From assembly GCF_003018115.1 (NCBI RefSeq), contig NZ_CP027457.1: 64,000 bases of DNA, one strand, 5' to 3'. This document shows, piece by piece, positions 12,001-15,000 of this stretch (position 1 is its first letter; the number at the start of each line of letters is the position of its first letter). Origin of the DNA: Escherichia coli. Lineage in GTDB: Bacteria > Pseudomonadota > Gammaproteobacteria > Enterobacterales > Enterobacteriaceae. Made by a program: the position numbers.

Positions 12001-15000
12001 GGTGCGCCGGTGGCGATTACCGGTGCGCTGCTGGTGGGCCTGGGCTTCAAACCGTTATACGCGGCGGGGCTGTGTCTGATTGCCAATACTGCGCCGGTGG
12101 CGTTTGGTGCGTTGGGCGTGCCGATTCTGGTCGCCGGTCAGGTAACGGGAATCGATCCGTTCCACATTGGCGCAATGGCGGGACGTCAGTTACCGTTCCT
12201 GTCGGTTCTTGTGCCGTTCTGGCTGGTAGCAATGATGGACGGCTGGAAAGGGGTGAAAGAGACGTGGCCAGCGGCGCTGGTTGCTGGGGGAAGCTTCGCT
12301 GTCACTCAGTTCTTTACCTCTAATTATATTGGTCCGGAACTGCCGGATATTACTTCGGCGCTGGTGAGTATCGTCTCACTCGCTTTATTCCTTAAAGTCT
12401 GGCGGCCGAAAAATACCGAAACGGCAATCAGCATGGGACAATCCGCAGGTGCGATGGTGGTAAATAAGCCATCTTCTGGCGGTCCCGTGCCTTCAGAATA
12501 TAGTCTGGGGCAAATCATTCGAGCGTGGTCACCGTTTTTAATCTTAACGGTGCTGGTCACCATCTGGACCATGAAGCCGTTTAAAGCGTTATTTGCTCCG
12601 GGCGGCGCGTTTTATTCACTGGTGATTAATTTCCAGATCCCTCATTTGCATCAACAAGTGTTGAAAGCGGCACCCATTGTCGCCCAACCAACGCCAATGG
12701 ATGCGGTGTTTAAATTCGACCCCCTCTCGGCTGGCGGCACCGCTATTTTTATTGCGGCGATTATCTCTATCTTCATCCTCGGCGTGGGCATCAAGAAAGG
12801 TATTGGCGTCTTTGCCGAAACGCTAATTAGCTTGAAGTGGCCGATACTGTCGATTGGCATGGTGCTGGCGTTCGCCTTCGTCACCAACTATTCTGGCATG
12901 TCCACCACGCTGGCGCTGGTACTGGCAGGTACAGGCGTGATGTTCCCGTTCTTCTCACCGTTCCTCGGCTGGCTGGGCGTATTCCTTACCGGCTCGGACA
13001 CCTCCTCTAACGCCCTGTTTGGTTCACTGCAATCGACCACGGCGCAGCAAATCAACGTCTCTGACACTCTGCTGGTGGCAGCAAATACCAGCGGCGGCGT
13101 AACTGGCAAGATGATCTCCCCGCAATCTATCGCCGTGGCCTGCGCCGCGACGGGCATGGTGGGCCGAGAATCTGAACTGTTCCGCTACACCGTGAAGCAC
13201 AGTCTGATTTTTGCCAGCGTTATCGGCATTATCACGCTGTTGCAGGCGTATGTGTTTACCGGGATGTTAGTCTCGTAAATCAATAAAGCCGGATGATCGT
13301 TAATATCATCCGGCTTCATTTACATTATTCTGTCTTATTAATTGAAAATCATTTCTCGCTTTATTATCCATGCAGCAATAATGTTTTGCGTTCAGATAAC
13401 CTGCTAAATAATTAAGAGCGTGAGAACATCTATTTTTTTATCACGCAAAACAAGTCTGTATTAATTATGTTCGCTTGATGAGCAAACACCGTTCTATCTG
13501 TTGCTTTTGCAATCTTAATCGTTAAAACTACCAACGAATTTATATAGTTACGTTGTGAAATGTTGTTAATTTTTTGTTTATTGAAATTTCGTAAAAATAG
13601 CCAGATAGACATCGTATAGGGTTTATTCTTATAAATTTCACCTGTTTTCTATCAATGATGTCGTTTTTTTAAGAATGGAGGAAATTATTAAAGAAGATAA
13701 AGCATAAAACTATTTCTCCCAGTTACGAATTTTTTAACATTGTTTTGTCACTTGCGTTATTAATGAATAAGAAATTTAAATATAAGAAATCGCTTTTAGC
13801 GGCTATTTTGAGCGCAACCCTGTTAGCCGGTTGTGATGGCGGTGGTTCCGGATCTTCCTCCGATACGCCGCCTGTAGATTCTGGAACAGGGTCTTTGCCG
13901 GAAGTGAAACCTGATCCAACACCAAACCCGGAGCCGACGCCTGAGCCAACGCCGGACCCAGAACCTACGCCGGAACCGACACCTGATCCTGAGCCAACAC
14001 CAGAACCGGAGCCAGAACCTGTTCCTACGAAAACGGGTTATCTGACCCTGGGCGGAAGCCAGCGGGTAACTGGTGCTACCTGTAATGGTGAATCCAGCGA
14101 TGGCTTTACATTTAAACCTGGCGAGGACGTTACTTGCGTGGCGGGTAACACGACAATTGCCACCTTCAACACTCAGTCAGAAGCTGCGCGTAGCCTGCGT
14201 GCGGTTGAAAAAGTGTCGTTTAGTCTTGAGGACGCGCAAGAACTGGCGGCTTCCGACAATAAGAAAAGCAATGCGGTTTCGCTGGTAACGTCCAGTAACA
14301 GCTGTCCGGCGGATACAGAACAGGTTTGCCTGACGTTCTCCTCGGTGATAGAGAGTAAACGTTTCGACTCGCTGTATAAGCAAATCGATCTGGCACCGGA
14401 AGAGTTCAAAAAGCTGGTCAATGAAGAGGTGGAAAACAATGCCGCGACCGATAAAGCGCCATCCACTCATACTTCACCGGTCGTGCCCGCCACCACTCCG
14501 GGAACAAAACCGGATCTAAACGCTTCCTTCGTGTCGGCTAACGCGGAACAGTTTTATCAGTATCAACCTACTGAAATTATTCGCTCCGAAGGCCGACTGG
14601 TAGATAGCATGGGCAATGGTGTGGTTGGCGTAAATTACTACACCAGCTCAGGCCGTGGCGTAACTGGCGAAAACGGCAAATTCAATTTCAGCTGGGGCGA
14701 AACCATCTCCTTTGGTATCGACACCTTTGAACTGGGCTCAGTACGCGGCAATAAGTCGACCATTGCATTGACTGAGTTGGGCGACGAAGTTCGCGGCGCG
14801 AATATCGATCAGCTTATTCATCGTTATTCCCAGGCCGGAAAAAATGATGAGCGTGAAGTGCCGGACGTAGTGCGCCAGGTCTTTGCCGAATATCCCAACG
14901 TGATTAACGAGATTATCAATCTCTCGTTATCCAACGGCGAGGCATTGAGCGAAGGCGATCAAACCTTTGAGCGGACAAACGAATTTCTTGAGCAGTTTGA

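Follow-up and report, generated by a model that had tools for sequence, protein, structure and literature searches.

The window, by which we mean the whole 64-kb stretch of DNA that was analyzed, is part of an Escherichia coli chromosome. Its positions 13200–13900 are 100% identical to E. coli F9792, and the RefSeq annotation of that strain, transferred to window coordinates, provides the gene map. The genes (all F9792 annotation) and two non-coding features of the locus are:

594–2327, minus strand: fatty acyl-AMP ligase gene
2328–2689, no strand assigned: divergent control region between the fatty acyl-AMP ligase gene (minus strand) and yghO (plus strand), G+C 0.315 (68.5% A+T)
2690–3832, plus strand: yghO
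3839–4663, minus strand: glcC
4854–11241, plus strand: glcDEFGB
11596–13278, plus strand: glcA
13286–13316, plus strand: intrinsic terminator hairpin of glcA, a 12-bp stem with six G-C pairs and a T-rich tail
13763–18322, plus strand: sslE (yghJ), with its ATG at 13763
up to about 30413, plus strand: pppA, gspS2 (yghG) and gspC–M
30565–30637, minus strand: tRNA-Phe, with core genes beyond

Because the perfect match to F9792 places glcA on one side and sslE, followed by pppA, gspS2 and gspC–M, on the other, positions 13320–13762 are the regulatory region of the T2SS-beta operon sslE(yghJ)-pppA-yghG-gspC-M, of which sslE is the first gene. Its product is a lipoprotein metalloprotease, and the open reading frame, which encodes a lipoprotein signal peptide, has a G+C content of 0.515 and a GC3 of 0.58. 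Positions 13200–13900 found a match in 4368 of 5426 complete E. coli genomes (about 80%), always at the same site and nearly always annotated as glcA / sslE. Three small open reading frames within the spacer (60 amino acids on the minus strand, 40 and 33 amino acids) were considered as genes and rejected: none of them matches Pfam or is annotated in RefSeq, nonsynonymous changes in them are numerous, and some strains have them in broken form.

The initial annotation of this DNA had pointed to about 440 bp of strongly AT-rich sequence upstream of sslE, and its borders, 13320–13762, proved exact. The glcA terminator hairpin, which starts 8 bp past the glcA stop codon and bounds the AT-rich region upstream, ends at 13316, and the sslE ATG follows at 13763. 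With a G+C content of 0.287 (71.3% A+T) compared to 0.519 for the window (48.1% A+T), these 443 bp are the most AT-rich stretch of this length within the 64 kb; only 0.06% of all 443-bp windows are equally low, and all of those overlap it. The whole glcA-sslE spacer (13279–13762, 484 bp, G+C 0.295) is the longest among the 29 intergenic regions of at least 60 bp, for which the median length is 160 bp and the median G+C content 0.441. It is also the most AT-rich of them, one 65-bp spacer excepted.

The region was described as full of A/T runs, and the 13 homopolymer A/T runs of at least 4 nt indeed correspond to 2.9 per 100 bp against 1.0 in the window, roughly a threefold density. However, shuffled sequences of the same composition hold 9.7 ± 2.7 such runs. 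The runs are thus frequent but not in excess over base composition, and the signal is composition rather than a special arrangement of tracts. The same picture was obtained with the H-NS motif (tCGATAAATT, Lang et al., 2007; TCGATAAATT): a single match with at most two mismatches was found at 13537–13546, adjoining the start site proposed below, and 14 with at most three mismatches. The density is two to four times that of the window, yet equals what shuffles yield (1.4 ± 1.2 and 10.7 ± 3.1, respectively). Consequently, neither the H-NS motif nor A-tracts are enriched beyond composition in 13320–13762. TpA steps occur 10.2 times per 100 bp against 4.3 in the window, while no helical phasing of AA/TT dinucleotides near 10.5 bp was found in the region. 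Curvature was predicted with a wedge model whose values serve for ranking only. By this measure, the predicted mean is modestly raised, with 7.8 degrees per turn against 5.8 for the window, and the end-to-end/contour ratio of the region falls at the 5th percentile. The strongest predicted bend lies at about 13640–13670, reaching 21 degrees per turn at about 13656, where the 99th percentile of the window is 15. The signal in 13320–13762 is therefore real, and consists of sustained AT-richness plus one local, predicted bend.

To locate the promoter within this stretch, published work on the orthologous region is of help. The primers 5570 and 5571, with which Tan et al. (2016; PMC5012682) obtained an active sslE promoter clone, map to window positions 13279–13298 and 13547–13568. 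The cloned active fragment thus corresponds to 13279–13568, which requires a start site upstream of 13568. These authors also placed a putative Fis site F1, centered at −138, and a region F2 of three overlapping Fis sites, from −41 to −68. We called Fis sites by an inclusion/exclusion rule (Shao et al., 2008), and upstream of 13568 it delivers exactly one isolated site and three overlapping sites (13469–13494); the latter three are also present in a UTI89-type sequence. In that UTI89-type sequence, an exact match to both primers, the published distances of F1 and F2 are best met by a +1 equivalent to window position 13536. Fitting these distances to the Fis matches would therefore put the start site at about 13536 (±1), which suggests the following arrangement:

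13320–13468, plus strand: upstream AT-rich block, G+C 0.28, holding putative F1
13390–13404, plus strand: putative Fis site F1, a match to the Fis rule centered at 13397 that corresponds to F1 of Tan et al.
13469–13494, plus strand: Fis region F2, composed of overlapping Fis rule matches at 13469–13483, 13473–13487 and 13480–13494, directly 5' of the candidate −35
13501–13536, plus strand: putative core sigma-70 promoter, with candidate −35 TTGCTT (13501–13506), a 16-bp spacer and candidate −10 TAAAAC (13523–13528)
13536–13762, plus strand: putative 5' untranslated leader of the sslE operon, about 227 nt, G+C about 0.26, as given by the proposed start site

The assignment of TTGCTT and TAAAAC as probable hexamers is our own reading of the sequence and not a published one. 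Both are weak. Since a stringent sigma-70 consensus scan of 13100–14000 found no promoter-like site, the real promoter is weak as well, which is consistent with a promoter that depends on an activator. This arrangement also changes the view of the region as one long AT-rich leader. Given the boundaries of the promoter clone and the geometry of the Fis sites, only the downstream half, about 227 bp, can be leader, while the upstream part of about 215 bp is promoter-upstream DNA. The leader is likely to form the downstream part of the region that H-NS and StpA bind.

An alignment of five lineages (this window, K-12, a porcine ETEC, an NMEC O18 strain and AST85, the most divergent match) separates two kinds of conservation. 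The spacer occupies the same place in all lineages sampled, with 87–100% identity. Its AT-richness is kept in these five divergent lineages at a G+C content of 0.26–0.30, despite about 19% variable columns: in the upstream block, G+C is 0.27–0.30 with 19% of the columns variable, and in the leader 0.26–0.29 with about 19%. In contrast, no part of the spacer is as well conserved as the 69-bp block 13469–13537 with F2 and the core promoter, in which only 8.7% of the columns vary and the G+C content is about 0.39. Thus the core is conserved in sequence, while the flanks are conserved in composition. An exact 18-mer from the Fis/core sequence was compared against 100,044 species genomes, and 10 matches were obtained in unrelated taxa, about the number calculated for chance. 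One match is true, that of Escherichia sp. E1V33, which is 95% identical across the locus, so that the search taught us nothing about distant relatives.

A second AT-rich spacer, between the ligase gene and yghO, had been ascribed the same character. This holds for its composition only. A 443-bp window over 2328–2689 (start 2300) has a G+C content of 0.305, the second lowest of the window, while the mean predicted curvature of this spacer is ordinary (5.65 vs. 5.78 degrees per turn, by the same wedge model). The spacer is present in 4544 of the 5426 E. coli genomes and truncated in K-12-type strains, which is probably the reason that ChIP work on K-12 does not cover it. A literature search on yghO found nothing on H-NS at this spacer. 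Its base composition suggests that H-NS may bind there.

For the glcA-sslE spacer the situation is different, as its control by nucleoid-associated proteins is well documented in other strains. Yang et al. (2007; J Bacteriol 189:142), as cited by Tan et al. (2016; PMC5012682), reported that the 14 genes form one operon, which is expressed more strongly at 37°C than at 22°C. According to the same account, purified H-NS and StpA bind the promoter region of ETEC H10407 and block open-complex formation, and StpA binds the regulatory region more tightly than H-NS. Tan et al. themselves found the sslE promoter region to be AT-rich and, by BEND-IT, curved. Deletion of hns raised sslE mRNA in EC958 2.2-fold at 22°C and 7.2-fold at 37°C; in UTI89, the rise was about 3.5-fold at 22°C and no more than about 1.7-fold at 37°C. 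These effects were complemented, except for the small one of UTI89 at 37°C (PMC5012682). Furthermore, Fis and H-NS act antagonistically at the sslE promoter. F2 is needed for activation by Fis and its mutation halves promoter activity, whereas mutation of F1 left the reporter unaffected (PMC5012682). Mutants in fis lose SslE. In K-12, the yghJ/glcA spacer is listed as H-NS-bound "according to all studies", i.e., the ChIP data of Grainger, Kahramanoglou and Oshima (Table 1 of Panyukov and Ozoline, 2013; PMC3661553), and yghJ is among the H-NS-sensitive genes with multiple H-NS motif-like sequences (Lang et al., 2007). The proposal that this DNA is an H-NS-type target repressing the secretion operon is therefore correct, and had already been demonstrated, in strains other than this one, by the binding reported in the cited account of Yang et al., by the ChIP studies compiled for K-12 and by the 2.2- to 7.2-fold rise of sslE mRNA in hns mutants.

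However, the accompanying statement that the operon is silenced under laboratory conditions goes too far. T2SS-beta is repressed at 22°C, yet UTI89 and IHE3034 express it well when grown in LB at 37°C. Its repression is temperature- and strain-dependent, not a blanket silencing in the laboratory. The latter fits the other type II secretion system of E. coli better, since the T2SS-alpha cluster (gspA-O) has been described as repressed in laboratory strains (PMC3032704).

Taken together, we consider it very likely that the T2SS-beta operon has its regulatory region in these 443 bp, with repression by H-NS and StpA, activation by Fis and a weak sigma-70 promoter whose start site is at about 13536. 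The promoter would lie within the conserved, less AT-rich core of about 70 bp, flanked by two blocks of 72–74% A+T: about 150 bp upstream and the transcribed leader of about 227 nt downstream. H-NS and its paralogue StpA would bind this AT-rich DNA and keep RNA polymerase from forming an open complex. Such repression would be strongest at ambient temperature and relaxed at 37°C, to a degree that depends on the strain, and at 37°C Fis would activate from the three overlapping sites just 5' of the −35. We infer that both AT-rich flanks take part in H-NS control; for the leader, composition and the predicted bend point in this direction. Binding, derepression, dependence on F2 and ChIP occupancy in K-12 are published for other strains, while the positions of the elements in this window are our deductions. 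From this perspective the region is ordinary and already known: a characterized promoter with a long leader. As H-NS binding and repression of sslE and the T2SS operon have been published, the AT-rich stretch is already explained.

The yghJ (sslE) promoter of ETEC H10407 and UPEC UTI89 is the same, orthologous locus with the same Fis sites F1 and F2 and the same glcA-sslE arrangement. Over 701 bp the window is 94.6–98.9% identical to the sampled K-12, NMEC (UTI89-type) and porcine ETEC sequences, with K-12 at 98.9%. This strain differs from the studied ones by a few substitutions, among them G for A at the presumed +1 and a run of seven instead of six T. Orthologous as well is the yghJ/glcA "promoter island" of K-12 (374 bp, one of 78; PMC3661553), the same spacer, which the ChIP data compiled there give as H-NS-bound. 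Promoter islands such as that of K-12 were defined by a very high density of start sites that PlatProm predicts over at least 300 bp. A simple proxy for −10 elements (TATAAT with at most one mismatch) finds 12 matches in our region, fourfold the window mean of 3.1 but below the 20.8 ± 4.5 expected from composition in shuffles. The gspA/gspC control region of T2SS-alpha in K-12 is likewise an AT-rich spacer of a type II secretion operon, and is recorded in the same compilation as H-NS-bound and as a promoter island (PMC3661553). However, it lies at another locus, between rpsJ and bfr, and has divergent promoters. The system it controls is cryptic in the laboratory, while several strains express T2SS-beta at 37°C. 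Finally, H-NS represses proU, bgl and eltAB through sites on both sides of the promoter, and sslE is likewise AT-rich on both sides of its presumed start site. It differs from them in that its leader is a candidate downstream element by composition and predicted bend.

One might speculate further on how the two flanks cooperate. H-NS and StpA could bridge them across the Fis-bound core, thereby forming a loop in which RNA polymerase is trapped or from which it is kept out, and competition by Fis could turn this into a bistable, heritable ON/OFF switch. The leader would then act as a downstream regulatory element like those of proU and eltAB, and would not be a passive untranslated region. We regard this scenario as doubtful. 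If true, such a switch could underlie the cell-to-cell heterogeneity of T2SS expression, which Microcolony-seq revealed in EPEC and UPEC (PMC12456302).

Another potential explanation is that the AT-richness chiefly serves activation. The upstream block would form a Fis/UP-element scaffold that bends the DNA and recruits RNA polymerase to a weak promoter, and H-NS binding would be a by-product. The weak core hexamers, the requirement of F2 for full activity and the loss of SslE in fis mutants fit to this idea, as does the finding that the influence of Fis exceeds that of H-NS in UTI89 at 37°C (PMC5012682). However, the mutation of F1, the site located upstream, had no effect there, and F2 sits in the less AT-rich core (G+C 0.39) instead of the AT-rich flanks. 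In addition, deletion of hns clearly derepresses sslE at 22°C, and in EC958 at 37°C as well (PMC5012682). Activation as the chief reason for the composition is thus unlikely, while activation by Fis is complementary to repression by H-NS and does not exclude it.

The spacer might also owe its AT-richness to a foreign origin, as the scar or junction of an island gained by horizontal transfer, with the whole locus being xenogeneically silenced. The locus ends beside tRNA-Phe (pheV), a classic integration site, and is absent from about 20% of the E. coli genomes. Two inspected deletions start at the upstream border of the AT-rich block or shortly before it (window positions 13318 and 13268), and the neighborhood was scored as foreign by Price et al., as listed in PMC3661553. 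However, the body of the operon from sslE to gspM has a G+C content of 0.541 compared to 0.519 for the window, and its GC3 of 0.50–0.67 resembles that of the flanking core genes; by composition, a xenogeneic island is not supported. In the same list, IslandViewer and GIST make no island call here, and only Price et al. flagged the region as foreign (PMC3661553). Neither boundary repeats nor, in the F9792 annotation, an integrase were seen at the locus, and the position of the spacer does not vary among the lineages sampled. Both sslE-negative strains that were inspected (n = 2) lost the promoter and sslE through an IS4- or IS1-associated deletion that left gsp remnants behind, so these two absences are secondary losses. 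Hence the suggestion of a xenogeneically silenced island, made in the initial annotation, does not fit a locus with a core-like body that occupies one site in about 80% of the genomes, and we find an island origin of the spacer quite improbable. Instead, the H-NS target that the sequence predicts is the control region of 0.44 kb and not the body of the operon.

A fourth scenario places the temperature dependence at the RNA level, with the leader acting as a thermometer, a riboswitch or through a coupled upstream open reading frame (uORF), independent of H-NS. A 5' untranslated region of about 227 nt, as our start site suggests, would offer room for it, and the ATG at 13763 lacks an obvious Shine-Dalgarno sequence. 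A uORF of 10 codons (13675–13707) overlaps a GGAGGA and is intact in the five strains, and the translational GTPase TypA affects SslE levels. Nevertheless, the minimum free energy of the leader is unremarkable (z = +0.39), as 126 of 200 shuffled sequences fold at least as well. No Rfam family matches the leader at the gathering threshold, and at E ≤ 1 the sole match over 13000–14100 (E = 0.42) lies on the glcA terminator and none in the leader. A structured RNA leader is thus not supported. All three substitutions within the uORF among the five strains are nonsynonymous, with no sign of purifying selection. Furthermore, temperature regulation is visible at the level of mRNA and lost in hns mutants (PMC5012682). 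Control by the leader RNA in place of H-NS is thus very improbable.

That the region is simply non-coding DNA of unusual AT-richness, whose regulatory role ends with housing a promoter, is almost certainly wrong: intergenic DNA is AT-richer than coding DNA in general (median G+C 0.44 here) and the tract and motif statistics stay within the expectation from composition, but the spacer is the most extreme one of the window by length as well as by composition, this composition is held despite 19% variable columns, and binding and genetic data have been published for the region, the former as cited in PMC5012682 and PMC3661553.

The regulatory logic at this promoter, repression by H-NS and StpA at low temperature and activation by Fis at 37°C, was thus known before, and no new question is opened by our analysis. 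It does supply a map in the coordinates of this strain, and it corrects one point: H-NS targets a control region of 0.44 kb, not an AT-rich island. The importance of such control follows from its cargo. SslE, a mucinase, is also a vaccine candidate, and in ETEC the same T2SS exports the heat-labile toxin; control of this promoter therefore decides when these factors are made.

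Within the promoter region and 5' leader of the sslE operon (13320-13762), 12 hexamers resembling the -10 element were counted, if TATAAT with at most one mismatch is considered on both strands. This number is four times the mean of the window. Based on the region's own composition, however, 20.8 ± 4.5 such hexamers are predicted, and the observed number thus falls about 2 SD short. This shortage may result from selection against spurious promoters.

The leader further comprises a small upstream open reading frame, listed here together with the features of other loci that are discussed below:

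13675-13707, plus strand: uORF of 10 codons (MEEIIKEDKA) in the sslE leader, overlapping GGAGGA
L006 (locus of the sslE-negative strain WP4-S17-ESBL-08) 6119-7741 and L007 (locus of the sslE-negative strain LCP30S3_I3) 6069-6839: IS4 or IS1 element by glcA
L001 (locus extending upstream of the window) 1-9087: lipid gene cluster adjoining yghO, upstream of and overlapping window positions 1-2327

The uORF is unbroken in all five divergent strains compared (the window, K-12, porcine ETEC, NMEC O18 and AST85), while all three substitutions found within it among these strains are nonsynonymous. For the ATG of sslE itself, no obvious Shine-Dalgarno sequence was found. Downstream of sslE, REP-type palindromes (GCCGGATAAGGCG...CGCCGCATCCGGC) build a 133-bp unit that is present in 2.3 tandem copies in the sslE-pppA spacer (18324-18624; G+C 0.56). 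This array is BIME-like and lies within the sslE operon.

In WP4-S17-ESBL-08 and LCP30S3_I3, the IS element is located immediately 3' of glcA or within its 3' end, and a deletion has removed sslE together with its promoter and some of the gsp genes. What remains is gspK'-L-M or the stretch from gspC'-D on. In the window, glcA (11596-13278) is an unbroken ORF of 560 codons, whereas the otherwise identical record of strain F9792 annotates it as frameshifted and the ligase gene with an internal stop. Hence, either the window does not correspond exactly to the F9792 assembly or the latter contains errors. The glcB-glcA spacer harbors a C0719 sRNA (Rfam RF00117, 293 bits; 11296-11517, minus strand), antisense to the direction of the glc operon.

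The cluster adjoining yghO, unusual for E. coli and missing from K-12, comprises serine palmitoyltransferase (spt), acyl carrier protein, epimerase and fatty acyl-AMP ligase genes and extra lptF/lptG copies. Together, these genes form a predicted sphingolipid-like lipid pathway.

The TRAP transporter genes (42507-45653 region) show a G+C of 0.42-0.46 and a GC3 of 0.39-0.48, with an AT-rich spacer of 311 bp upstream (45343-45653; G+C 0.33), between hemW and yggM. Compared with the T2SS locus, the TRAP region is a clearer low-G+C candidate both for an accessory insert and for H-NS binding.
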